From: a virus
Lineage: Duplodnaviria; Caudoviricetes
Direction: 5' to 3' (one strand)
DNA length: 64,000 nt
IMG/VR virus record: IMGVR_UViG_3300031813_000004
Span: 64,001-128,000 of that record
Part shown: in pieces, positions 895 through 49,997 of the stretch
Layout: each line of letters begins with the position of its first letter
How positions within the stretch are numbered: position 1 is the stretch's first letter
Position numbers and translations under genes: made by a program
Notes under the pieces: model-generated
The model's database searches: none
What the model was told of the DNA's origin: nothing
Seen by the model: the letters and a program-made list of their open reading frames with translations, nothing else

Positions 895-1027
895 AAAGAA
901 TGAAGGAAAGAAACCCTTGCCAAAAATTGGAACTAAATTTATGGTCAACGGCCAGGAATATGAAGTTAAATTTATTAATGAGGGTCAACATAGATTCTCA
1001 GCAGAGCCGTGTGAAGCTGCATATTAG
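884..1027 (+). CDS. small hypothetical protein (47 aa, not in ORF track)
   Basis: MKSKKNEGKKPLPKIGTKFMVNGQEYEVKF... read by hand, GGAGG RBS; fills the gap better than the track's 900 start. Confidence 0.55.
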   Translation: MKSKKNEGKKPLPKIGTKFMVNGQEYEVKFINEGQHRFSAEPCEAAY

Positions 1028-1031
1028 TAAA

Positions 1032-1220
1032 ATGTCTAAAAATATTTATACAAAATATTGTAGTTATAATCTTATCTTTTGCCATCAATGTATACATTTA
1101 TTTAGGGATGAACTAATTCATGTTAATTGGTGTAAAAATGAACATGAACCTTTTTCTACTAAATGTAAAAAGGATAGAAAAGAAACAGAAAATTATTTAC
1201 AATGGAAAAGGAGACAATAA
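1032..1220 (+). CDS. 4-Cys 'DEL' microprotein family, satellite copy (x5 subfamily)
   Basis: CHQC-IHLFR-DEL-IHVNW-C...C; start re-assigned to ATG 1032. Confidence 0.65.
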   Translation: MSKNIYTKYCSYNLIFCHQCIHLFRDELIHVNWCKNEHEPFSTKCKKDRKETENYLQWKRRQ

Positions 1221-22677: not shown

Positions 22678-23550
22678 CTATATTTTATTTTGTAATTTAT
22701 TAATTTTCTTAATAATATTCTGTTTACATTTATTAGGATCTTTGACTGAGTTACAGGAACTCATTCCTGATTTTAATTGACCTATTTGAGATTGTATAGC
22801 AGCCCTTTTAAAATTATACATGCATTGTTTCTTTTCTGGTCCTGAGAATTTAGAACAAGACCTAGCTGCTTTACTTAATTTATCTCTATATATTTTAGTA
22901 GCTGCTAATGCAATTAAAGATACAATAACAGCAGCACCTAATCCTTTTCCTAATGGAGTTCTAACAAATCTATTAACAGATGCAACTCCATTCATCGCAG
23001 CAGTTCTTCCTGCTTTTAATGAAGCCATTACTTTTCCTGGAGCTGCTTTAATTTGCCCAGGTATATCTTTAACAGTTTGTACATAACCTTTAGCTGGTCT
23101 CATCATATGAGCAGTTATAGCCATATTACCAACTTTAGCTGCTGCACCTAAAGCTTTACTTCCAGCACTTTCTTCATCATCTTCATAATCATTATATCTA
23201 CCACGTTCTACAATATAACTCATTGTAGAAGCTGAAGATGATAACCCAATTTCATTTAAGGATCCAACTTCAACAATACATTGTTTAATCTCTTTATCAA
23301 TATTTTTATCTAAATTAATAGATTCTTTTAATGATTTAAAAAGTTTTATTTGATTATCATGATTATATCTAGTTTCAGGAAATTTACCTTCCTGTAAAAT
23401 AGATATTATTTCATAATCTGAAGCCTCAATCATGATATATTTTTCAGCTAGAGATTTATCAGTTTTATTTAAATTAGATTCATTATGGATCATTTCATTA
23501 ATTGTTTGTCTAGCAAATAAAAGAAATAAAACTGAGTCTTTAATATTCAT
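22678..23550 (-). CDS. TM + Cys-hairpin paralog 3 (subfamily A)
   Basis: EASDYE N-domain; TM; CSKFSGPEKKQC...CNSVKDPNKC. Confidence 0.8.
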   Translation of the reverse strand: MNIKDSVLFLLFARQTINEMIHNESNLNKTDKSLAEKYIMIEASDYEIISILQEGKFPETRYNHDNQIKLFKSLKESINLDKNIDKEIKQCIVEVGSLNEIGLSSSASTMSYIVERGRYNDYEDDEESAGSKALGAAAKVGNMAITAHMMRPAKGYVQTVKDIPGQIKAAPGKVMASLKAGRTAAMNGVASVNRFVRTPLGKGLGAAVIVSLIALAATKIYRDKLSKAARSCSKFSGPEKKQCMYNFKRAAIQSQIGQLKSGMSSCNSVKDPNKCKQNIIKKINKLQNKI

Positions 23551-23554
23551 TATA

Positions 23555-24361
23555 TTACCTCATCTCACTGAGTTTATTTTCTAATTTAAGAATTTTAACT
23601 TTAATTACATTTTCACATTTTTGTTTATTTTCTTTACTAGAACAAGTAATCATACCTTGTCTTAAAGTTTGAATTTGTTTTTGAATCGCATTAATCTTAA
23701 ATTTTTTAATACAATTTATTTTTTCCGGACCTTTAAATTTGCCACATTGTTTTGATACTTCAGCAAAATTCTTTTCATAAACAACTATTGCTGCATATAT
23801 TACTAAAGCCGCAGTTAAAGCTGCACCTATTTTTTTTCCATTTGGTGTTTTAAGATATGACCCTAAATTAGATAAACCTTTTTGCGCATATAACTTACCT
23901 GTAGTATATAAATCTTTTCCTGCTGTAGATGCAGCTCCACCTACAATACCACCAGCAACCATAAGTCCATATTTCTTTTTATAATTTTCAGGTTTTTTAT
24001 CTTTCTTTTCATTTAAAAATATTTTTAATAAATCATTTGATGATTCTTTTAAAACATGTACTTCTTGTATAACACTTACTAATGTTTCTTTTCCTAAATA
24101 TTTATATAAGTTATCAAAGTCTTCTATAATTAATGATTTAAATGATTTTAAAAGTTCTACTTCCTTCAAGGAGTTATACTTTTCTATAGGATAATTTCCG
24201 GTTAAAGCCAGAGTTAGAAGTTCATAATCGGATGCCTCAGAAAGTATATAGTCGATGGACAATTTTTTAGCTTGGTCATTTAAATGACTCGTATTGAGAA
24301 ACTCTGAGAGTGTTCTCCTTAATGCTAAAAAGAATGTCAAAGAATTTTTAATATTTTTCAT
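23555..24361 (-). CDS. TM + Cys-hairpin paralog 2 (subfamily A)
   Basis: start re-assigned to MKNIKNS (AAGGAG upstream; aligns with paralogs); EASDYE; CGKFKGPEKINC...CSSKENKQKC. Confidence 0.8.
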   Translation of the reverse strand: MKNIKNSLTFFLALRRTLSEFLNTSHLNDQAKKLSIDYILSEASDYELLTLALTGNYPIEKYNSLKEVELLKSFKSLIIEDFDNLYKYLGKETLVSVIQEVHVLKESSNDLLKIFLNEKKDKKPENYKKKYGLMVAGGIVGGAASTAGKDLYTTGKLYAQKGLSNLGSYLKTPNGKKIGAALTAALVIYAAIVVYEKNFAEVSKQCGKFKGPEKINCIKKFKINAIQKQIQTLRQGMITCSSKENKQKCENVIKVKILKLENKLSEMR

Positions 24362-24395
24362 CGAAAAGTATAACTCCTTGAATCTGTATAATTTA

Positions 24396-25418
24396 TTAAA
24401 TTTTAGCTTGAAGCTTAGAAATCTTAGCTTGAATAGAAGCTTTGCATTTAGCAGGATCCTTGGTAGAAGCACAACCAGAGAACCCAGCCCTTAACTGAGC
24501 AATCTGAGCCTGGATTGCAGCCTTCTTAAACTTGTTAAGGCAGTCTTGTCTTTCTGGACCAGTCTTACCTTTGCAAGCTTTTGCACCTGCACTGAATTTT
24601 GCTTTATAAACTTTATAAGCTGCATATGCAACAAGCGAAGCTAAAAGAGCGCCACCAATATAACGACCTTTTTTAGAATTAGCGAATGCAACAACTGCAG
24701 ATGCACCATTCTGAGCAGCAGCTTTACCACTAGCAACAGTGTTACCTGCTTTCATTCTTAATTTTTCACCACTAACAGTTGCAGAAGAAACATTATGTGC
24801 AGTTTCTGGATTTCTAGTACTAGCAGTTCCAAAAACACCTTTACCAAAATCTTTAGCTTTACCAGGTGCACTTCTAACAGCAGATGCTGCAGATTTAGCT
24901 TTACCAGGAATACTTCTAATAGCACCACCAACATGAGCAGGTGCATTCTTAACTGCTTTACCAGCATAACCAGCTCTAGCTTTCATTCTATTACCAAAGT
25001 TAGCAGCAGTGTGCCCTTTTAATTTTCCAGCTGGAACTAAGTCATACGGAAGTTCTAACAGGAAATTAGCAATAGGAGCTGCCGAAGAAAGACCATATTC
25101 ACTAAGAGCAGTAATATCACTAACAAAGTCAGTGGTAACATCTTCAGAAAGATATTGGCTGAAAGTGTCAAAGTTTTCAATAATGCAAGTTCTAACATCT
25201 TCAAAAAGAGCAGCTTCTTTTTCACTATTGTACTTCTCATCAGGAAGTTCACCTTCAACAGCAAGACTCATAACTTCATAATCTGAAGCCTCATTCATAA
25301 TGAAGTTTTTGTTTTGGATTTTTTCAATCTTAGTAGACTCTTCATTCAGGTCAACGAATTCACACATAGTCTTTCTAAGTGTGGTTAAGAAAATTAAAGA
25401 ATCAGATACATTACTCAT
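24396..25418 (-). CDS. TM + Cys-hairpin paralog 1 (subfamily A)
   Basis: AGGAGG RBS; EASDYE; long Ala/Gly/Lys linker; CKGKTGPERQDC...CASTKDPAKC. Confidence 0.8.
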   Translation of the reverse strand: MSNVSDSLIFLTTLRKTMCEFVDLNEESTKIEKIQNKNFIMNEASDYEVMSLAVEGELPDEKYNSEKEAALFEDVRTCIIENFDTFSQYLSEDVTTDFVSDITALSEYGLSSAAPIANFLLELPYDLVPAGKLKGHTAANFGNRMKARAGYAGKAVKNAPAHVGGAIRSIPGKAKSAASAVRSAPGKAKDFGKGVFGTASTRNPETAHNVSSATVSGEKLRMKAGNTVASGKAAAQNGASAVVAFANSKKGRYIGGALLASLVAYAAYKVYKAKFSAGAKACKGKTGPERQDCLNKFKKAAIQAQIAQLRAGFSGCASTKDPAKCKASIQAKISKLQAKI

Positions 25419-35529: not shown

Positions 35530-35760
35530 ATGAAAAGCGAATTAGTAAAAAAAGAAACAAAACAACAATACCCATGTTTAATGAAATTTAAAGATAATGA
35601 TAGAAAAGGAACTTTTATAGTTTTATTTAATGTTTATGGTAGTGGAGTCATAGTTTATACAGAAAGAAATGACAATTCAAGTGTTGGTTCTTATTATAGT
35701 GCTTGGGATATGAACAATTTTACTTTAACTAATGACAAAATTATTTTATCAAATGAATGA
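35530..35760 (+). CDS. hypothetical protein
   Basis: YPCLM...IVLF...G...W...F....I.LSN small phage family pattern. Confidence 0.6.
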   Translation: MKSELVKKETKQQYPCLMKFKDNDRKGTFIVLFNVYGSGVIVYTERNDNSSVGSYYSAWDMNNFTLTNDKIILSNE

Positions 35761-35930
35761 AACAAAAATATATTTTAGATTATGAAATAAATCAACCTTC
35801 AACATGTTATGATTGTAAATATAGATTTTGGGATGAATTATTAAATTATTGTTTTTGTCAAATTAACCAAAGACCTTATTTAAAAGATGTTAATAAAATG
35901 TGGGAATGTGATGGATATTATGAAAACTAA
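35757..35930 (+). CDS. 4-Cys 'DEL' microprotein, satellite copy (57 aa, not in track)
   Basis: CYDC-KYRFW-DEL-LNYCF-C...RPY...ECDGY. Confidence 0.7.
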   Translation: MKQKYILDYEINQPSTCYDCKYRFWDELLNYCFCQINQRPYLKDVNKMWECDGYYEN

Positions 35931-36108
35931 AAAACTACCAATGGATTTTTCATACCCAGTAAAATGTGTTGATTGCAAACATAGATTTGAAGATGAATTA
36001 TTAAAGTATTGTTTTTGCAAAATAGAACAAAGACCATATTATCAAAAAATTGGATATGATGCTACAACAAGAGAGTGTGATGGGTATGAAAAAGAAAATA
36101 TATTCTAG
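35920..36108 (+). CDS. 4-Cys 'DEL' microprotein, satellite copy
   Basis: CVDC-KHRFE-DEL-LKYCF-C...RPY...ECDGY. Confidence 0.7.
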   Translation: MKTKKLPMDFSYPVKCVDCKHRFEDELLKYCFCKIEQRPYYQKIGYDATTRECDGYEKENIF

Positions 36109-36268
36109 TTGTATTTTTCCAGGCTTCTTTTGTAAAAGATGTAAATATTTATTTTATGATGAATTAGTTCATTGGAATATATGTATGATGAATAAAACTC
36201 CATATCAAGAGGAAAGTGATAGATATTCAAAATATCACTGCGAGTTTAGAATAATACAGGAGGGTTGA
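36086..36268 (+). CDS. 4-Cys 'DEL' microprotein, satellite copy
   Basis: CKRC-KYLFY-DEL-VHWNI-C...TPY...C. Confidence 0.7.
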   Translation: MKKKIYSSCIFPGFFCKRCKYLFYDELVHWNICMMNKTPYQEESDRYSKYHCEFRIIQEG

Positions 36269-40198: not shown

Positions 40199-40248
40199 AA
40201 CCAGAACATCTGTGAACCCTTCTCACATAAGGGTTTACTGTTCTGGTT
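40199..40248. other. long bulged hairpin upstream of phosphoesterase/array operon
   Basis: aaccagaaca-tct-gtgaaccctt / aagggtttac-tgttctggtt. Confidence 0.5.
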
Positions 40249-40302
40249 ATATGAACAAAATACTGAAGGTAAATTACATTGTTTATATGGGAGAAAAATA
40301 CA

Positions 40303-41493
40303 ATGAGTAATCAACCAGCTTCAAAATTAACAATTTTTATGAAAGAAAATTTTAAAAAATCAAATAAAGAGTTATTAGATATTGCTATAAAAGATTTTAA
40401 TTATTCTTATGGTCCTGGTTCATTTTCAACTTATATTAATAGACTTAGAAAAAAATTTAAAAATATAGAAGTAAAAGAAGTACAACCACAACAAGACTTT
40501 ATTAAATTAATTCAATCTAGAAAAATAATATCTCTATTTGAATTAACAAAAATATTACATTGTGATGGAACAGAATTAATTAAATTAATTGATGATTATA
40601 AAACTCAAGGTTATCATATAATTATTGATAATGATATATTACATTATGGAGCTTATAATATTAATACTGGAATTATAAAACCTAATCAATTAGAAGAAAA
40701 AGAAATAATTTTTGCTGCAGCTTCTGATTTACATTTTGGGTCTAAAGCATGCCAAATAACTGCATTAAATGAATTTTGTAATGAATGTAGAAAACAAGGA
40801 GTTAAACATATTTTTTCACCTGGAGATGTTACGGCTGGAAGACATGTATATCCAGGTCAAGAATTTGACTTATATGAATTATCTGCACAAGGGCAAACTG
40901 ACTCATTATTAGCAAATTTACAAACTGGATTTGATTGGTGGATATTGGGTGGTAATCATGACTATTCTCATATTAAAAATGGTAGTTATAATCCATTAAA
41001 TGTAATGTCAAGTAAAAGACATGATTTACATAACTTAGGTTATGATGAATGTGTTGTTCCTATTTTAAATGGAATTGATTTACAAATGTGGCATCCTTCT
41101 GGTGGAGTTCCTTATTCAATTTCTTATAGATTACAAAAAGGTGTTGAACAATTAGCATTCTCTGAATTATTATCAGTATCTAGAGGACTGAAAGAAAAAC
41201 CATCTATTAAGTTTGTATTATGTGGTCACTTACATATTCAAATGCAAGCATTATTTGGAAGTATTTTTGGAATGCAATGTGGAGCATTTGAGGGAGTTAC
41301 AAACTACTTAAAAAGAAAAGGATTAGTTCCGGCTATTGGTGGATATATTGTTAAAGCTAATATTAAAAATAATGGAATATTAAACTTTGAAGCTAAATTT
41401 TATTTATACCCAGAAATTATAGATGATTGGAAAAATTATTCACATTCATACAATGAAGAGAAGATTCAACTTAAACCAATTTTAGAAGGATAA
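40303..41493 (+). CDS. calcineurin-like metallophosphoesterase with N-terminal HTH-like region
   Basis: SDLHFG, PGDVT, GGNHD, WHP, CGHLH; ATG 40303 after GGGAG. Confidence 0.85.
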   Translation: MSNQPASKLTIFMKENFKKSNKELLDIAIKDFNYSYGPGSFSTYINRLRKKFKNIEVKEVQPQQDFIKLIQSRKIISLFELTKILHCDGTELIKLIDDYKTQGYHIIIDNDILHYGAYNINTGIIKPNQLEEKEIIFAAASDLHFGSKACQITALNEFCNECRKQGVKHIFSPGDVTAGRHVYPGQEFDLYELSAQGQTDSLLANLQTGFDWWILGGNHDYSHIKNGSYNPLNVMSSKRHDLHNLGYDECVVPILNGIDLQMWHPSGGVPYSISYRLQKGVEQLAFSELLSVSRGLKEKPSIKFVLCGHLHIQMQALFGSIFGMQCGAFEGVTNYLKRKGLVPAIGGYIVKANIKNNGILNFEAKFYLYPEIIDDWKNYSHSYNEEKIQLKPILEG

Positions 41494-41496
41494 AAT

Positions 41497-41700
41497 ATGG
41501 GTTCCATAAAATTCTTTGATGAAGAATTAGAAATTACTACTAATGAATATGTTGAAGAATATTGTAGTTGTTGTAAACATTTAGAATATTTAGATAAATT
41601 AGTTTATTTTGTTATATGTAAGTTACCTTATTCAGAATCAATATGGGATAATCGTAAAGATATTAATATGTGTTATGATTTTAAAAGAAAGGATGAATAA
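41497..41700 (+). CDS. 4-Cys DEL microprotein 1
   Basis: CSCCKHLEYLDKLVYFVIC. Confidence 0.75.
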   Translation: MGSIKFFDEELEITTNEYVEEYCSCCKHLEYLDKLVYFVICKLPYSESIWDNRKDINMCYDFKRKDE

Positions 41701-41900
41701 TGTCATCAATACAATTTAATGATAATAATATTAGTATAGTTAATGATAGATTATTAATTAGATGTTTTAAATGTAAATTCATTGAGTATCAAGATGAATT
41801 ATTAGACCATATTGTTTGTAATAAGATATTACCTACAACTTTAGAATGGTATAAAAGAGTTAATTATTGGGGGTCTTGTTGCTTTTTTATGGAGAAATAA
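41700..41900 (+). CDS. 4-Cys DEL microprotein 2
   Basis: CFKCKFIEYQDELLDHIVC. Confidence 0.75.
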   Translation: MSSIQFNDNNISIVNDRLLIRCFKCKFIEYQDELLDHIVCNKILPTTLEWYKRVNYWGSCCFFMEK

Positions 41901-42110
41901 ATGCCTAATATTAATTTTATAAAAAATGAAAATATTTATTTTACAGATAATTATAATATTTTAATGTGTAAAGACTGTATATATTTAATATTTCTAGACG
42001 AATTAACTAATTATGCTATATGTAATATGGATTATTTAAAACATTATCTTATGCTTTTTCCAGATGGTTGTACAAGACATATAAAGGAAAAATTAAATGG
42101 CAACAGTTGA
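41901..42110 (+). CDS. 4-Cys DEL microprotein 3
   Basis: CKDCIYLIFLDELTNYAIC. Confidence 0.75.
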   Translation: MPNINFIKNENIYFTDNYNILMCKDCIYLIFLDELTNYAICNMDYLKHYLMLFPDGCTRHIKEKLNGNS

Positions 42111-42294
42111 ATTTTTATTTTTAAAATTAACTAGATCAACTAGATTTTATAACATAATAAATTGTAAAACATGTGAATGGTTAGTATTCTTAGATGAATT
42201 AATAGAACATTCTATTTGTAATTATTCTAATTTAAAAGAACATGATCATTATCTTTATGTATCTGGTTGTTCTCGTTATAAAAATAAGGAGTGA
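42097..42294 (+). CDS. 4-Cys DEL microprotein 4
   Basis: CKTCEWLVFLDELIEHSIC. Confidence 0.75.
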   Translation: MATVEFLFLKLTRSTRFYNIINCKTCEWLVFLDELIEHSICNYSNLKEHDHYLYVSGCSRYKNKE

Positions 42295-42297
42295 TAT

Positions 42298-42534
42298 ATG
42301 GATAATTATATTATCATATACGAAAAACATAATAAAGAAACAAAAACATCTTTACTATATATTGAATATAATTGTGAAAATTGTAAATATTTCAAATTTT
42401 TAGATAAGTTAACTAGATTTTTGATTTGTGGTAACTCAGATGTAAAAGCTTTAGGAGAAGAATGTTTAATTAGAAAGGATTCATTATTATTAAATATGAA
42501 ATTGAATTTAAAGAACACCCAGTTCAGAATATGA
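42298..42534 (+). CDS. 4-Cys DEL microprotein 5
   Basis: CENCKYFKFLDKLTRFLIC. Confidence 0.75.
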   Translation: MDNYIIIYEKHNKETKTSLLYIEYNCENCKYFKFLDKLTRFLICGNSDVKALGEECLIRKDSLLLNMKLNLKNTQFRI

Positions 42535-42674
42535 CAGCTCCAGTTTCTTATATTAATGTGAATTGTAAAAACTGTAAACATTTAAAATTTTTAGACGAAT
42601 TACTTTATTTTGTAATTTGTGGGTGTGTATCATCAAAATGCTATGTAAGTTTTAATTGTTTAGAAAGGAAATAA
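42531..42674 (+). CDS. 4-Cys DEL microprotein 6 (not in track; frame open upstream to ATT codons 42483-42491)
   Basis: CKNCKHLKFLDELLYFVIC. Confidence 0.7.
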   Translation: MTAPVSYINVNCKNCKHLKFLDELLYFVICGCVSSKCYVSFNCLERK

Positions 42675-42677
42675 TTA

Positions 42678-42884
42678 ATGATAATATATAATATTAAAAC
42701 AAATGATAATAAATTAAGTGAATTAACTGAAGAATACTATGAAGAATTTTGTAAAAATTGTATTAATATAAAAATGATTGATAATCTAACTCGTTATTTG
42801 GAATGTAAAAAATATGAACATACCACATTAGTACGAAAAGATTGTATGGTTATTTGTGCTGATTTTAAATTAAAGGATAAATAA
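42678..42884 (+). CDS. 4-Cys DEL microprotein 7
   Basis: CKNCINIKMIDNLTRYLEC. Confidence 0.75.
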   Translation: MIIYNIKTNDNKLSELTEEYYEEFCKNCINIKMIDNLTRYLECKKYEHTTLVRKDCMVICADFKLKDK

Positions 42885-43090
42885 TGGATATTATTACTAT
42901 AGAAATAAACAAAAGAATAGTTACATATTCTGTATTAAAAAATATTGATTTTATTTTAAATTGTTGTGAAACATGTCCTAATTGTATATTCGTAGACAAG
43001 CTTTTAAATCACATCTCCTGCAAATGTAAACACTCTCCTATATTTTATCCCAGATGTTCTAATCGCTTTCCTAGGAAAGATTCATGGTAA
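42884..43090 (+). CDS. 4-Cys DEL microprotein 8
   Basis: CETCPNCIFVDKLLNHISC. Confidence 0.75.
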   Translation: MDIITIEINKRIVTYSVLKNIDFILNCCETCPNCIFVDKLLNHISCKCKHSPIFYPRCSNRFPRKDSW

Positions 43091-43290
43091 ATTTTACGAT
43101 ATATTTTACGGTCCCATGTATATTAATCCACTATAGACAATCTAAAATTATATGTGGAGATTGTAAGCATTATTTATTTATTGATGAATTAACAAACCAT
43201 ATTATTTGTAATCATGATAATCTTGCTCATTTTTATACAGGGTGGACAGATAATACAACATGTGGTAATATTAATAGGAACCCTATATGA
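43084..43290 (+). CDS. 4-Cys DEL microprotein 9
   Basis: CGDCKHYLFIDELTNHIIC. Confidence 0.75.
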   Translation: MVNFTIYFTVPCILIHYRQSKIICGDCKHYLFIDELTNHIICNHDNLAHFYTGWTDNTTCGNINRNPI

Positions 43291-43454
43291 CTTGTAAAAA
43301 TATAACAAAAATAAAATATTTAGGAAAAGTCAGAAGTGATAATAATATGTTACATAATTATCAATGTTCATCTTGTAAAAAGATTGGAATATTGAGTTGT
43401 TACGAAGATGAATTAGAAACTGAAAAACAACTAAAAAGAATACATGAGAGTTAA
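43287..43454 (+). CDS. small Zn-ribbon-like ORF interrupting the array (55 aa, not in track)
   Basis: MTCKNITKIKYLGK...YQCSSCKKIGILSCYEDEL; lacks family spacing. Confidence 0.5.
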   Translation: MTCKNITKIKYLGKVRSDNNMLHNYQCSSCKKIGILSCYEDELETEKQLKRIHES

Positions 43455-43456
43455 CT

Positions 43457-43690
43457 ATGGTAACAATAGAAGATATTAATAATAAAATACAAGATATAGG
43501 AACTATTGATTATACATTTTTAAATTCTGATGTTTTTAATTTATGTGGAAATTGTATTTATTGTTCACATATTGATGAACTAATAAATTATGTTAAATGC
43601 AACCATAAAAAGGGTAGTAGATTTTATAATTTTTATAAAAAAGATTTAAAATGCTGGTATTATAGTGAGGTGGTAATTGGTGACTATTGA
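43457..43690 (+). CDS. 4-Cys DEL microprotein 10
   Basis: CGNCIYCSHIDELINYVKC. Confidence 0.75.
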   Translation: MVTIEDINNKIQDIGTIDYTFLNSDVFNLCGNCIYCSHIDELINYVKCNHKKGSRFYNFYKKDLKCWYYSEVVIGDY

Positions 43691-43904
43691 ATATACCAAA
43701 CTAAACTTAGTAGAAAATTTTAGTTCTATAAATTACCATGACGATGATATATTAGATATATGTAAAACTTGTAAAAACTTAGTATATATGGATGAGCTAA
43801 TAAAACATATTAAATGTAGATCACAAGGACCAGTTCAATTTAGAAAATTTTTTGAAATGAAAGTTAAATGTATGAATAAACCAAGAGGAATAAGATATGA
43901 TTGA
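43677..43904 (+). CDS. 4-Cys DEL microprotein 11
   Basis: CKTCKNLVYMDELIKHIKC. Confidence 0.75.
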   Translation: MVTIEYTKLNLVENFSSINYHDDDILDICKTCKNLVYMDELIKHIKCRSQGPVQFRKFFEMKVKCMNKPRGIRYD

Positions 43905-44100
43905 ATATCCTAAATTTGATAATAAATTATCTGCAGATGGCGGAAATCAAACTACAAATTTATGTAAGATATGTCCTAATTGTTTATATATAGATGAATT
44001 AATGAACTATATTAAATGTAATGCAGATAGAATTTCTTTCTTTTATTATATCAAAGAAAATTTAATATGTATAAATAGACCAAAATGCATAAAATTATGA
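43897..44100 (+). CDS. 4-Cys DEL microprotein 12
   Basis: CKICPNCLYIDELMNYIKC. Confidence 0.75.
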   Translation: MIEYPKFDNKLSADGGNQTTNLCKICPNCLYIDELMNYIKCNADRISFFYYIKENLICINRPKCIKL

Positions 44101-44303
44101 TAACTATTCAATTTTGTAATAATAAACAGATATATTTACATTTTAATAAAGTTTATGATAATATTGGTCTTACACTTTGTGAAGAATGTAATAAGAAAAT
44201 ATTTATTGATAAACTTACAAATTTTATTTTATGTGATATGCCAAGAATATCTTTTGATTATAATAAAGAATGTAAATTATATCAATTACAAAAATCAATC
44301 TAA
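44097..44303 (+). CDS. 4-Cys DEL microprotein 13
   Basis: CEECNKKIFIDKLTNFILC. Confidence 0.75.
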   Translation: MITIQFCNNKQIYLHFNKVYDNIGLTLCEECNKKIFIDKLTNFILCDMPRISFDYNKECKLYQLQKSI

Positions 44304-44312
44304 GGAGTATAT

Positions 44313-44633
44313 ATGGAAGAAATTACAATTCAATTTAATTACTTAAATCTTAAAAGAATTGAATCTCATAATTTTTATAGTAGTAATATAAATGACCCAG
44401 ATAAGATTTTTGATTATAAATGTTGTGAACAATGTAAAGATCATGTTTTAGTTGATGTACTTTTAAGATATGTTGAATGTAATTCTGATAGAATGTTAAA
44501 TGGATCTTCTTATTATCAAGATAATGGAACAGGTAAAAATTGGTGTGCATTTGGTCCTAGAATAAAATATGGAAGTTCTAATTTAACAGATTCTGATGCC
44601 ATTATAAAAAATAAAGAGGTAGTTAAAAAATGA
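44313..44633 (+). CDS. 4-Cys DEL microprotein 14
   Basis: CEQCKDHVLVDVLLRYVEC. Confidence 0.75.
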   Translation: MEEITIQFNYLNLKRIESHNFYSSNINDPDKIFDYKCCEQCKDHVLVDVLLRYVECNSDRMLNGSSYYQDNGTGKNWCAFGPRIKYGSSNLTDSDAIIKNKEVVKK

Positions 44634-44854
44634 TATCTATAGATTTTCCTAATTGTAAAAGAAAAAAATTATGTAGTTATCATACTGATGATGAAGATTC
44701 AAGAATCATAGATAAATGTGATAAATGTATAAAACATATTTATATTGATAAACTTATTAATCATGTTATTTGTAATGCAAAAGAAACACCTACTTTTTCT
44801 TTTAATTTAGATTATAATGGTTCTATATATTGTACTATGGAAAAGGAGAAATAA
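44630..44854 (+). CDS. 4-Cys DEL microprotein 15
   Basis: CDKCIKHIYIDKLINHVIC. Confidence 0.75.
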   Translation: MISIDFPNCKRKKLCSYHTDDEDSRIIDKCDKCIKHIYIDKLINHVICNAKETPTFSFNLDYNGSIYCTMEKEK

Positions 44855-45102
44855 TGATAGTATCTTTTCAATTTCCAAATCATATAGATTCAAATAAAAT
44901 TTACAAAGATATAAATTTTATGGGTATAGATGTATTTGATTTTGAAAATTGTAAAAAATGTAAATATTATAACTATGTTGATGAATTATTAAATATCATC
45001 ATATGTCTTAGAATAATAGATAATGAAAATGGATTTTGTAAATTGAGTGTATATGACAACCAAATGTTTTGTTGTTATGGACAAGAGTATTTTAGAGGTT
45101 AA
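44854..45102 (+). CDS. 4-Cys DEL microprotein 16
   Basis: CKKCKYYNYVDELLNIIIC; ATG 44854 after AGGAG. Confidence 0.75.
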   Translation: MIVSFQFPNHIDSNKIYKDINFMGIDVFDFENCKKCKYYNYVDELLNIIICLRIIDNENGFCKLSVYDNQMFCCYGQEYFRG

Positions 45103-45104
45103 TT

Positions 45105-45323
45105 ATGAAAATAGAAATTAATATTCATCTACCACTATCAATTAATAGAAATTATAGAATTTCATTAGATAATATGATATTTGATTTTAATAGATGTAAA
45201 CATTGTTATCTTAATATTTTTGTAGATGAATTATTATATTATGTCGAATGCAAACATAACGATACCTTAAAATTTTCAGAAGATAATACCGAGTGTTCAT
45301 GTATTAATGGAATTGAAATATGA
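45105..45323 (+). CDS. 4-Cys DEL microprotein 17
   Basis: CKHCYLNIFVDELLYYVEC. Confidence 0.75.
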   Translation: MKIEINIHLPLSINRNYRISLDNMIFDFNRCKHCYLNIFVDELLYYVECKHNDTLKFSEDNTECSCINGIEI

Positions 45324-45562
45324 TTGAGATAACATTCTATTTACCAAACATGCACCCAGTAAATGATAGTCTTAATTTATATCAAATAGGAGATACATTT
45401 AATTTTAATATTTGTAAAAAATGTAGTTTTAATATTTCAACAGATGAATTATTAAGGCATATTGAATGTAAAAGGAAATATATGGGAGTTTTTTCATATG
45501 ATGATAAAACAAATTTAGTTTATTGTAACCTTGGATTAGAAAATGAAAGGAGAGATAAATGA
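45320..45562 (+). CDS. 4-Cys DEL microprotein 18
   Basis: CKKCSFNISTDELLRHIEC. Confidence 0.75.
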   Translation: MIEITFYLPNMHPVNDSLNLYQIGDTFNFNICKKCSFNISTDELLRHIECKRKYMGVFSYDDKTNLVYCNLGLENERRDK

Positions 45563-45786
45563 TAATATCATTTTATTTTCCTAATAATGATAGAATGAAA
45601 AAAGATATGGAATTTAAATTTAGTAAATTAGATATAATAGAAAGAATAATATATGACTTTAGTATTTGTGAAAATTGTAAATATAATATATCAGTTGATA
45701 AAATTATGAATCATATTATTTGTAGTAAAATAAATTCATTTAATGTCAACCTTGACTATGATAATAAAAGATATTATTGTTACTGA
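45559..45786 (+). CDS. 4-Cys DEL microprotein 19
   Basis: CENCKYNISVDKIMNHIIC. Confidence 0.75.
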   Translation: MIISFYFPNNDRMKKDMEFKFSKLDIIERIIYDFSICENCKYNISVDKIMNHIICSKINSFNVNLDYDNKRYYCY

Positions 45787-45797
45787 GATAAAAATTA

Positions 45798-46073
45798 ATG
45801 AAAGAAATTAAAAATATAATTACTTTTCTATTTTCAAAAATTGATAAACCAAGATGTGAAAAATTTAACTTTGTATCAGATTATACAGACGAAACTTGGG
45901 ATTCAAAAAGGACTTTTGATTTTGAAATATGTAGAAATTGTATTAAAAATATTTTTGTTGATGAATTACTTAATCATATTGAATGTTCTTATTTAGGATA
46001 TTCTATATACTATGATGTTGAGGCTCACAAATATTATTGTTATTTTGGATCACAAAACCAAAGGAGTAAATAA
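45798..46073 (+). CDS. 4-Cys DEL microprotein 20
   Basis: CRNCIKNIFVDELLNHIEC. Confidence 0.75.
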   Translation: MKEIKNIITFLFSKIDKPRCEKFNFVSDYTDETWDSKRTFDFEICRNCIKNIFVDELLNHIECSYLGYSIYYDVEAHKYYCYFGSQNQRSK

Positions 46074-46421
46074 ATGATTATATTACACAATGAGAAATGT
46101 TATTTCTGTCATGGACAGTTAGTTGAAATCAAAAATATGGTATTAAATTGTAGCCCAATTGAAGTTAGATATGGTGGTTCTAATCCAATGAAAGAAACTT
46201 CCACTGGGTTATTTTGTAGAGAATGTGGTTTAAGATACGCATTTAAACCGAGTGAAGTAAAAGAATACGTTGCTAAATGTATTGAAAGTGATTTAAGAGA
46301 AGAAGCTAAAGAGACAGAACATATGAATAAAATTTTTGAAGGAATGAGAAAGAATACTAAAGTTAAAACATTAGACGAACTTAAAAAAGATAGTGTTGAT
46401 ATGTTTATAAAAAGGAGATAA
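46074..46421 (+). CDS. Zn-ribbon hypothetical protein
   Basis: CYFC...CRECG; AGGAG RBS. Confidence 0.65.
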   Translation: MIILHNEKCYFCHGQLVEIKNMVLNCSPIEVRYGGSNPMKETSTGLFCRECGLRYAFKPSEVKEYVAKCIESDLREEAKETEHMNKIFEGMRKNTKVKTLDELKKDSVDMFIKRR

Positions 46422-47568: not shown

Positions 47569-48247
47569 ATATTTAGAATCATTTTCAGACCTTTGTAAAA
47601 TTTATAGCTTAACTAGAGCTATAAAAATTGTTTTAGTTAATTTAAAAAAATTACAATCACAAGACAAAGAAATATCTGAATTAAAAGAAAAAGTTAAATA
47701 TGTGGAATCTATGGGTTTACAATTTGGGATAATGAAAACTAGCAATAAACCAGAAGGATTTCTTGCTCATGTTTGGAGTGAAACTTCAGACTATCAAAGA
47801 ATGAGCAGAGATTGGATGGATTCAATGCATTTTGAAATTGAAAATAAAAAATTACATGATAGAATAACTGAATTAGAATTTGATACAGCGCATCAAAAAT
47901 CTAAAATAGATTTATTAAATAAAGATATTGATGGTTTAATAAAAGATCAAGAAATAGAAATTAATAATTGGGTTGAAAGAAATAAAAAATTATCAAAACA
48001 AATAAATAACATTAAAGATATACATAAAAAAGAGATCGAAGATATAGAAGAACATACAAGTCAAATAGCTATTAATGAATCTTTAGAATTAGAAATTAAC
48101 CTTAAAGATATTGAGATTAAAAAACTTAGAAAAGCTCTTATTGAAACAGGTTGTAATAATTTATTTTGTCAAGAAGTTAATAGAATATGTGGGAATTGTC
48201 CTGCAAGAATGAATAAAAAAATTAAATTATTTGAGGATAATTTATGA
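47543..48247 (+). CDS. coiled-coil hypothetical protein
   Basis: 234 aa, AGGAG RBS, C-terminal Cys cluster. Confidence 0.6.
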   Translation: MMNLKKAIEYLESFSDLCKIYSLTRAIKIVLVNLKKLQSQDKEISELKEKVKYVESMGLQFGIMKTSNKPEGFLAHVWSETSDYQRMSRDWMDSMHFEIENKKLHDRITELEFDTAHQKSKIDLLNKDIDGLIKDQEIEINNWVERNKKLSKQINNIKDIHKKEIEDIEEHTSQIAINESLELEINLKDIEIKKLRKALIETGCNNLFCQEVNRICGNCPARMNKKIKLFEDNL

Positions 48248-48645
48248 TTAATATAACACCTGAAAATATAACATCTTTAAAAGAAAATGAAATATTCGTA
48301 TTTGGTTCTAATTATGCAGGAAGACATGGTAAAGGTGCAGCATTATTAGCAATGAAAAAATTTGGAGCTAAATCCGGTCAAGGTACTGGATTTATGGGCA
48401 ATTGCTATGGAATAGCTACAAAAGATAGTAAACTTAAAGTTTTACCTCTTAATAGAATAGAATGGCAAATTCATACTTTTTTAGAGTTTGCCAATGAAAA
48501 TCAACATTTACACTTTTTAGTCACTAAGATAGGATGTGGACTTGCAGGGTATAAACCAAAAGATATAGCTCCATTATTCTTTAAATATGATATTCCTTCT
48601 AACATAAGTTTACCTGAATGTTTCTTGAAATATAAGGAAAAATAA
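48244..48645 (+). CDS. A1S_2505-family (macrodomain-like) phage protein
   Basis: TPENITSL..NEIFVFGSN.AGRHGKGAA, G..G..YGI.T, F.VTKIGCGLAGY. Confidence 0.8.
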   Translation: MINITPENITSLKENEIFVFGSNYAGRHGKGAALLAMKKFGAKSGQGTGFMGNCYGIATKDSKLKVLPLNRIEWQIHTFLEFANENQHLHFLVTKIGCGLAGYKPKDIAPLFFKYDIPSNISLPECFLKYKEK

Positions 48646-49959: not shown

Positions 49960-49997
49960 AAAAATGGGATAAGGTATTTCACTTATCCCATTTTTTT
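49960..49997. terminator. bidirectional terminator
   Basis: aaaaatgggataag / cttatcccattttt between convergent blocks. Confidence 0.8.

Follow-up and report, generated by a model that had tools for sequence, protein, structure and literature searches.

A tandem array of twenty strongly diverged four-cysteine microproteins in an uncultivated jumbo myophage: a possible repertoire of metal-stabilised binders

The window analysed here is a stretch of 64,000 nucleotides (nt), bases 64001-128000 of the 150,156-bp IMG/VR virus record IMGVR_UViG_3300031813_000004. Its segment 41497-46073 carries, on the + strand, 20 co-oriented and tightly packed open reading frames (ORFs) of 47-106 amino acids (aa), all belonging to one four-cysteine family. 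This family is real, protein-coding and under selection, and its copies arose by old tandem duplication with rapid turnover, that is by birth and death with lineage-specific expansion. The family is new and narrowly distributed; the kind of phenomenon that it represents is already known. We put at about even the chances that these proteins form a set of small binders, stabilised by metal and bearing two variable surfaces, which serve host takeover or counter-defence and evolve by birth and death.

Organisation of the array

The 20 adjacent genes described by the original prediction, which was made from the sequence alone, are all present. They have in common the spacing C-x2-C-x6-D-x-L-x5-C and a distal Cys, at an overall identity of about 25%. 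In the MAFFT alignment of the 20 copies the initial Met, the four Cys and the Asp are invariant, the Leu is found in 19 of 20 and the mean column identity is 23%; everything except the four Cys, the one Asp, the one Leu and a few hydrophobic positions diverges fast. The pattern C..C.{6}D.[LIVM].{5}C matches exactly the 20 array ORFs in the whole 150-kb record. The middle residue of the D-x-L element varies (E in 12 copies, K in 6, N and V in one each). The N-terminal strand M-x-x-I-x-F, which had been called usual, has its Ile in 15 and its Phe in 12 of 19 copies, and the sub-motifs quoted for copies 10-12 (DEL.[NK][YH].KC) and for copies 14 and 16-20 ([FY][DN][FY]..C) are readable in the ORF translations and in the alignment.

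The array opens, on the + strand as throughout, with copy 1 (41497-41700, 67 aa; profile E 1e-18), copy 2 (41700-41900, 66 aa), copy 3 (41901-42110, 69 aa), copy 4 (42097-42294, 65 aa) and copy 5 (42298-42534, 78 aa). Copy 6 (42531-42674, 47 aa) is the minimal form, without the N-terminal strand, and is followed by three copies of 68 aa each, copy 7 (42678-42884), copy 8 (42884-43090) and copy 9 (43084-43290). Further downstream lie copy 10 (43457-43690, 77 aa), copy 11 (43677-43904, 75 aa, with a TTG start as listed), copy 12 (43897-44100, 67 aa), copy 13 (44085-44303, 72 aa; its database form begins at 44097), copy 14 (44313-44633, 106 aa) and copy 15 (44630-44854, 74 aa). Copy 16 (44830-45102) has 90 aa from a TTG, and its database form begins at 44854; copy 17 (45105-45323, 72 aa), copy 18 (45320-45562, 80 aa), copy 19 (45559-45786, 75 aa) and copy 20 (45798-46073, 91 aa) complete the series. 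The copies were assigned by alignment and profile.

The coding signal of the segment is strong. ORFs of at least 47 aa on the + strand cover 99.6% of it, against a mean of 4% and a maximum of 16% in 300 Markov shuffles, and the G+C content (GC) is 12% at third codon positions (GC3) compared with 28% at first positions (GC1). The array DNA has only 21-23% GC, a composition at which stop codons are frequent, yet all 20 frames are intact. The translational coupling that had been proposed is borne out by the junctions: of the 19 that separate listed copies, 12 are overlaps of 1-25 nt and six are gaps of 0-11 nt, and an AGGAG-like site precedes most of the starts. The one remaining junction, between copies 9 and 10, is a gap of 166 nt occupied by an extra ORF of 55 aa (43287-43454, + strand), which keeps the CxxC and the DEL with altered spacing and is missing the third Cys. 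Since this ORF fails the family profile (E 9.8) and gives no Pfam match, while retaining these two elements, it is possibly a degenerate 21st copy.

Relatives and distribution

A profile built from the 20 array copies and searched over the whole record revealed satellite copies, in which five, not six, residues stand between the CxxC and the Asp. Three of these (35757-35930, 35887-36108 and 36050-36268, + strand; together 35757-36268) lie beside the tail-sheath gene, form an x5-spacing subtype and are orthologous to a trio in a sister phage. A single copy at 900-1220 (+ strand) is a 106-aa ORF with the family domain in its C-terminal half (E 0.002 by the 20-copy profile and E<=0.001 by a 60-sequence profile). 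The figure of 24 copies in the window that had been given is correct, being made up of 20 in the array, three at 35757-36268 and one at 900-1220. Outside the window six more copies were found at record positions 23083-24649 (L005:3083-4649), directly upstream of a GyrB-type topoisomerase II gene; together with a 107-aa ORF they fill the space between a 438-aa gene and the topoisomerase II gene. The known 150-kb half-genome holds about 30 copies.

When the family profile was run against 1.84 billion protein representatives, 40 proteins were obtained at the cut-off of E<=0.001. About half were the window's own, and the foreign relatives, around 20, all come from a few related metagenomic phages. 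One candidate from the deep profile search, P0025 (1701 aa), is a sortilin/Por-tail protein without the motif and was discarded as a chance repeat match. No family above its curated cut-off was found in Pfam-A, PHROGs v4, NCBIfam 20, PADLOC 2.0 or the PDB sequences, and no single family of these libraries was matched by more than two members. Pfam DUF5390 (E 0.004), PADLOC AriB and NCBIfam rad14 were each hit by one member below threshold, and were taken as chance. Among 50,697 GenBank phages there was no match, either by blastn of the whole locus or by tblastn of two members. Homologues of anti-defence proteins, many of which are included in PHROGs, Pfam and the PDB sequences, were not found in those searches, and no dedicated anti-defence library was searched. 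The statement that no described family carries this motif therefore holds against these profile and library searches.

The closest relative is a sister phage (G001, 143 kb) that is collinear with our record and whose homologue of the metallophosphoesterase encoded directly upstream of the array is 68% identical. It gave 18 profile matches in five clusters of 3-5, hence a copy number of at least 18. Another contig from the same sample has one cluster in common with it, plus five copies beside baseplate and PAAR genes. In a third lineage three copies are followed, within about 400 bp, by a Metallophos gene of 233 aa, and two short contigs (L014 and L015) carry orthologues of copies 3-4 that are 84% identical at the nucleotide level. 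A degenerate DNA-pattern scan of IMG/VR returned 56 stretches, of which the profile confirmed the sister contig and one borderline singleton, the rest being chance matches.

Some of these relatives present features of their own. A lone 76-aa ORF on an unrelated viral contig (L135:57-287, IMGVR_UViG_3300033064_001798) has the core C-x2-C-x6-DEL-x5-C without the distal Cys and a profile E of 4e-5 in a small search; it is either a singleton relative or a chance match. In the third lineage, protein P0032 (147 aa, L010:4643-5086) is a family member fused C-terminally to a 66-aa protein, which has no Pfam match and is also found free-standing between family copies in the sister phage (L016:11952-12152); no other domain fusion was seen in the family. 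A second short Metallophos gene (232-233 aa) lies past the family copies in the sister phage (L016:12393-13091) and in the third lineage (L010:5464-6165). It has no counterpart in the window, where the 20-copy array and a 115-aa protein fill that space.

A relative of 161 aa (L006:8322-8807), placed just past baseplate and PAAR genes, consists of a glycine-rich, collagen-like N-terminal stretch followed by the family domain. The collagen-like sequence and this neighbourhood hint at a possible association of at least one member with the virion. In a related phage, represented by contigs L015 (71-418) and L014 (5-304), which are orthologous to window 41959-42309, a GC-rich ORF of about 115 aa stands in place of the 5' part of copy 3. 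Judged by its sequence, it reads like a Vsr/DUF559-type endonuclease, with no Pfam match, and it may have entered the array as a mobile endonuclease; the two contigs have 35-37% GC compared with 22% in the array.

Duplication, turnover and selection

Neighbouring copies resemble each other most, as had been observed in the original prediction and read as a sign of serial duplication. Adjacent copies share 31% identity against about 24% at an array distance of 7-9, a difference reached by none of 10,000 permutations. The tree, although poorly resolved, pairs neighbours locally (5 with 6, 17 with 18, and 16 with 19 and 20), joins the six topoisomerase-side copies in one group (Shimodaira-Hasegawa-like approximate likelihood ratio test, SH-aLRT, 94) and places the sheath-side trio with its sister-phage counterpart. 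In the same tree P0018 and P0027, both from other phages, fall together with copy 14 (SH-aLRT 95), and the C-terminal tails of copy 14 and P0027 are alike, which suggests that individual copies can be long-lived.

No long DNA repeats are present, as had also been noted: direct repeats in the array are restricted to a core region of 60-80 nt, with 60-74% identity, so the duplications are old. Gene accordions, such as that of poxvirus K3L, are recent segmental amplifications under selection that leave near-identical copies. The array is like them in that the copy number of a small gene, putatively involved in host interaction, changes by tandem duplication. It differs in that the proteins are only about 25% identical and the DNA is similar over the short core alone. 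The term 'gene accordion', which had been applied to this locus, can thus not be kept in its strict sense of recent amplification, because near-identical tandem DNA copies are absent; the array is an old birth-and-death family rather than an active accordion.

Comparison with the sister phage gives an idea of the turnover. Past the phosphoesterase gene there are 20 copies in our phage and 4(+1) in the sister, and before the topoisomerase II gene there are six copies in ours compared with about 200 bp in the sister. Reciprocal best hits between the two genomes were obtained for three of 26 called family copies, at 36-42% identity, compared with 84 non-family genes at a median identity of 58%. 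The family occupies plastic gaps between core modules, and it grows and shrinks by tandem duplication and loss in these gaps while the core genes remain collinear.

Selection on the proteins can be seen in the codons. Over the 20 copies the conserved Leu is encoded by TTA (12), CTT (4) and CTA (3), the Asp by GAT (17) and GAC (3), and the third Cys by TGT (17) and TGC (3), whereas the columns neighbouring these residues have an entropy of 2-3.6 bits. Such varied synonymous codons beside high-entropy columns indicate conservation at the protein level. Among the paralogs of the array, with about 25% protein identity, synonymous sites are saturated. The only close comparison is that of copies 3 and 4 with their orthologues in L014/L015. 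Over its last 48 codons copy 3 has 92% aa identity, a nonsynonymous distance (dN) of 0.034 and a ratio of nonsynonymous to synonymous rates (omega) of 0.25. Copy 4 has 56% aa identity, dN 0.333 and omega 0.86, with the core motif kept and the distal Cys changed to Gly. These two adjacent and short genes therefore differ ten-fold in dN.

Predicted structure

Two AlphaFold2 (AF2) models were made from different query members, copy 15 (m9939163a2e2e) and copy 3 (m834c3fe560ff), with alignments of 30 and 60 sequences. They have the same topology, with mean predicted local distance difference test (pLDDT) values of 70.7 and 67.2 and predicted template modelling (pTM) scores of 0.47-0.49, and they share a zinc-knuckle and beta-hairpin core. 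An N-terminal beta-hairpin is followed by a short helix that leads into the CxxC. In the core beta-hairpin the first strand ends at D-x-L and the second at the third Cys, and the pLDDT is 80-85 over the region from the CxxC to this hairpin. An aromatic-rich segment of 11-21 residues, predicted with lower confidence, then leads to the distal Cys. From the models we infer that the four Cys form one Cys4 metal site, most likely for Zn(II), which would staple a variable hairpin.

Because the four Cys are invariant and the two models are concordant, a metal-stabilised mini-scaffold with variable surfaces, as originally proposed, is the most economical reading. The proposal had also included a constant DEL surface that binds one common partner, and this part is not supported. 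The middle residue of the element varies among the copies, and in both models the Asp and the Leu lie where the core beta-hairpin ends or turns, so that a role in the structure is no less likely than one as an interface.

The family resembles canonical Cys4 zinc ribbons and knuckles of the rubredoxin-like type in its small size, in the CxxC knuckle followed by a beta-hairpin and in having the four Cys as the sole invariant polar residues besides the Asp. It differs from the canonical zinc ribbon, which has two CxxC/CPxC knuckles and two beta-hairpins, in that its second ligand pair is not a knuckle. Zinc-ribbon structures were not recovered by Foldseek or VIA-align, and no zinc-finger Pfam model reached threshold. 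With models of pLDDT 67-71, Foldseek against the PDB gave no match at E<=0.001, and the fold searches taken together (PDB Foldseek, VIA-align wide, BFVD and atlas) returned nothing significant, the best VIA-align Z being 3.1. Look-alikes in the ESM Atlas had a best feature score of 0.88, below the lead level of 0.9, and template modelling (TM) scores of at most 0.45. Weak BTB/T1 rows recur, all below threshold (BFVD E 0.36 and TM 0.48, atlas TM 0.40, PDB E 8.3, VIA Z 2.0). A homodimer prediction for copy 3, with the 60-row alignment, two copies and two Zn, scored 0.00 and is evidence neither way.

Proposed function and alternatives

In the family no signature of an enzyme, of a membrane protein or of secretion was found. 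Judging from their context, we infer that the proteins act inside the cell as binders and not as enzymes, and that their genes are transcribed together with other small accessory genes. The scaffold would be formed by the constant residues, with the CxxC knuckle, the beta-hairpin ending in D-x-L, the third Cys and the distal Cys arranged around one metal. The distal Cys would staple the variable, aromatic-rich hairpin of 11-21 residues, and specificity would reside in two surfaces, namely this stapled hairpin and the variable N-terminal linker (11-44 aa). Each copy would be tuned to a different target in the host, in a defence system or in a rival phage, and the size of the repertoire would track the arms race. 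A more specific version is also conceivable, although we regard it as rather less probable than the general one: a previously unknown metal-stapled 'hairpin display' scaffold, used by one jumbo-phage clade as a library of dozens of inhibitors against host defence or housekeeping targets, with a copy number that differs five-fold between sister phages at one locus.

Several observations weigh against the repertoire of binders. The models are of medium confidence (pLDDT 67-71) and the segment of the fourth Cys is the least confident. The metal site is itself a predicted one, and some relatives are without one ligand, the copy-4 orthologue having Gly at the distal Cys and P0034 having Tyr at the third. 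The dN/dS evidence comes from two short genes and is indicative only. In addition, fast turnover is common to the other small accessory genes of this phage, of which 16 out of 101 have a reciprocal best hit in the sister genome, and so does not point specifically to an arms race.

The alternative that survives best is that the copies are sequence-specific transcription factors or structural DNA/RNA-binding zinc proteins, which would direct phage RNA polymerases to different promoters or coat nucleic acids. It would agree with the small Cys4 zinc-knuckle architecture, with the cluster beside topoisomerase II in this phage and with a cluster in the sister phage that adjoins a 780-aa gene reading, as judged by its sequence, like a putative RNA polymerase beta-prime subunit. 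A similar role has been put forward for the nearest published parallel, the zinc ribbon of Bacillus phage G (for example YP_009015343.1), whose expansion to about 35 copies was called 'unprecedented' and whose members were proposed to be transcription factors or nucleic-acid-binding zinc proteins (Iyer et al. 2021, Viruses 13:63, PMC7824862). There too a jumbo phage encodes small Cys4 metal-finger proteins by the dozen, with some of the genes in tandem, strong divergence among the copies and no known function. The two families nevertheless appear to be unrelated in sequence. The phage G copies have about 92-118 aa, the pattern CPxC ... Cx2-3C and a conserved C-terminal helix (WKENDRYL), whereas in the array family one CxxC is combined with two lone Cys, separated by 11-21 residues, and with the D-x-L hairpin. 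The phage G genome (NC_023719, 497 kb) gave no match to the 60-member family profile at E<=0.01 and hhalign of the two families gave a probability of 0.1%; by profile, hhalign and motif, membership of the gp32/34/35/37/46 type of phage G was ruled out. Nor do the array proteins look like a uniform set of nucleic-acid binders. Their isoelectric points (pI) range from 4.7 to 9.5, with about half of the copies acidic or neutral, which argues against a uniform role of this sort, and the alignment columns contain no conserved basic patch, the Asp being the only conserved polar residue besides the Cys. One-to-one orthologues are almost absent between the two sister phages, which have conserved core genes and presumably conserved promoters as well. 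On balance we consider this explanation unlikely, though it deserves more credit than those that follow.

According to a second alternative the ORFs are for the most part without function, left over from a selfish duplication process and drifting neutrally. Some copies do show signs of decay: one in L006/L007 loses the motif past the hairpin, the 55-aa ORF within the array is distorted and the copy-4 orthologue has its omega of 0.86. Neutral decay was named at the outset as something that would speak against a functional array, and it is very improbable given what was found: 20 of 20 frames intact in AT-rich DNA, six columns invariant at about 25% overall identity with variety in their synonymous codons, retained ribosome-binding sites and the conservation of copy 14 across phage lineages.

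The third alternative is the one originally suggested, in which a constant D-E-L surface docks all copies on the neighbouring metallophosphoesterase and the variable surfaces bring in the targets. The array does directly follow this gene (40279-41493, + strand, 404 aa), starting 3 nt downstream. The product matches Pfam Metallophos (25.2 bits, residues 145-320) and PHROG 7339 'DNA repair exonuclease'; the helix-turn-helix that had been assigned to its N-terminus could not be confirmed, as Pfam sees Metallophos alone. The adjacency recurs in the sister phage, and in the third lineage three copies lie close to the 233-aa Metallophos gene already mentioned. Nevertheless, 58 loci with a homologue of the 404-aa protein (3 from IMG/VR and 55 from metagenomes, 37-63% identity), most of them including several kb of flank, contain no family member. 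Out of 59 other loci with a homologue, the sister phage is the only one with family copies, so the adjacency is limited to these two phages. Family clusters are also found at four or more other genomic sites, adjoining topoisomerase II, tail-sheath and baseplate genes among others. With the variable middle residue of D-x-L and the position of its Asp and Leu at the core hairpin in both models, a functional link to the phosphoesterase finds very little credit with us.

Least probable of all is that the copies serve putative phage ubiquitin-like (Ubl) conjugation genes as diversified substrate adaptors, E3-like zinc fingers or substrates, for although several genes of the candidate E2-JAB-E1-Ubl region (record 44-58 kb) have reciprocal best hits in the sister phage and weak BTB/T1-type adaptor folds appeared in four fold searches, these rows are all below a meaningful threshold (best E 0.36, TM <=0.48, Z <=3.1), the family is not adjacent to the candidate genes and one Cys4 site alone does not make a RING or U-box.

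Genome and neighbourhood of the array

The record has a GC content of 27.6%. The tail sheath of the record is about 30% identical to the sheaths of AR9/PBS1-type and staphylococcal jumbo phages, and CheckV estimates the completeness of the record at 48%. These data, together with the low GC, identify it as a fragment of the genome of an uncultivated AT-rich jumbo myophage.

Directly 3' of the array a gene at 46074-46421 (+ strand) encodes the 115-aa protein mentioned above, which has two CxxC pairs, does not belong to the family and lacks a reciprocal match in the sister phage. In the accessory block past the array one of the few conserved anchors is a 133-aa protein (window 48244-48645) that matches PHROG 2072, of unknown function, with E 1e-41 and is 59% conserved in the sister phage.

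A terminator-like hairpin was found before the phosphoesterase gene (40212-40238, + strand) and another one at the convergent end of the + strand gene block (49960-49995, - strand), both by pattern match only, and the same pattern scan found none within the array. Given the hairpin upstream of the phosphoesterase gene and the lack of one in the array, a single transcription unit may extend from about 40279 to about 49958, as far as such matches can tell. Sigma-70-like promoters were not enriched (92 found against 97 expected), and an intergenic k-mer screen recovered only the ribosome-binding site, with no temporal class assignable.

Significance

The array is an unusually clean case of its kind, with a simple invariant scaffold signature, two well-delimited variable segments, an easily synthesised minimal form of 47 aa and a sister genome in which the corresponding slot contains 4-5 copies rather than 20. 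If the proteins are indeed specific binders, they would offer a compact natural scaffold for inhibitor discovery and would help to reveal which host systems are being fought by this phage lineage. Should they prove to be something else, the family would be a second, independent example beside the zinc-finger expansion of phage G, and would show that such expansions recur in jumbo phages. In these phages much of the genome is given over to arrays that encode tiny, fast-evolving proteins for which the databases have no explanation.

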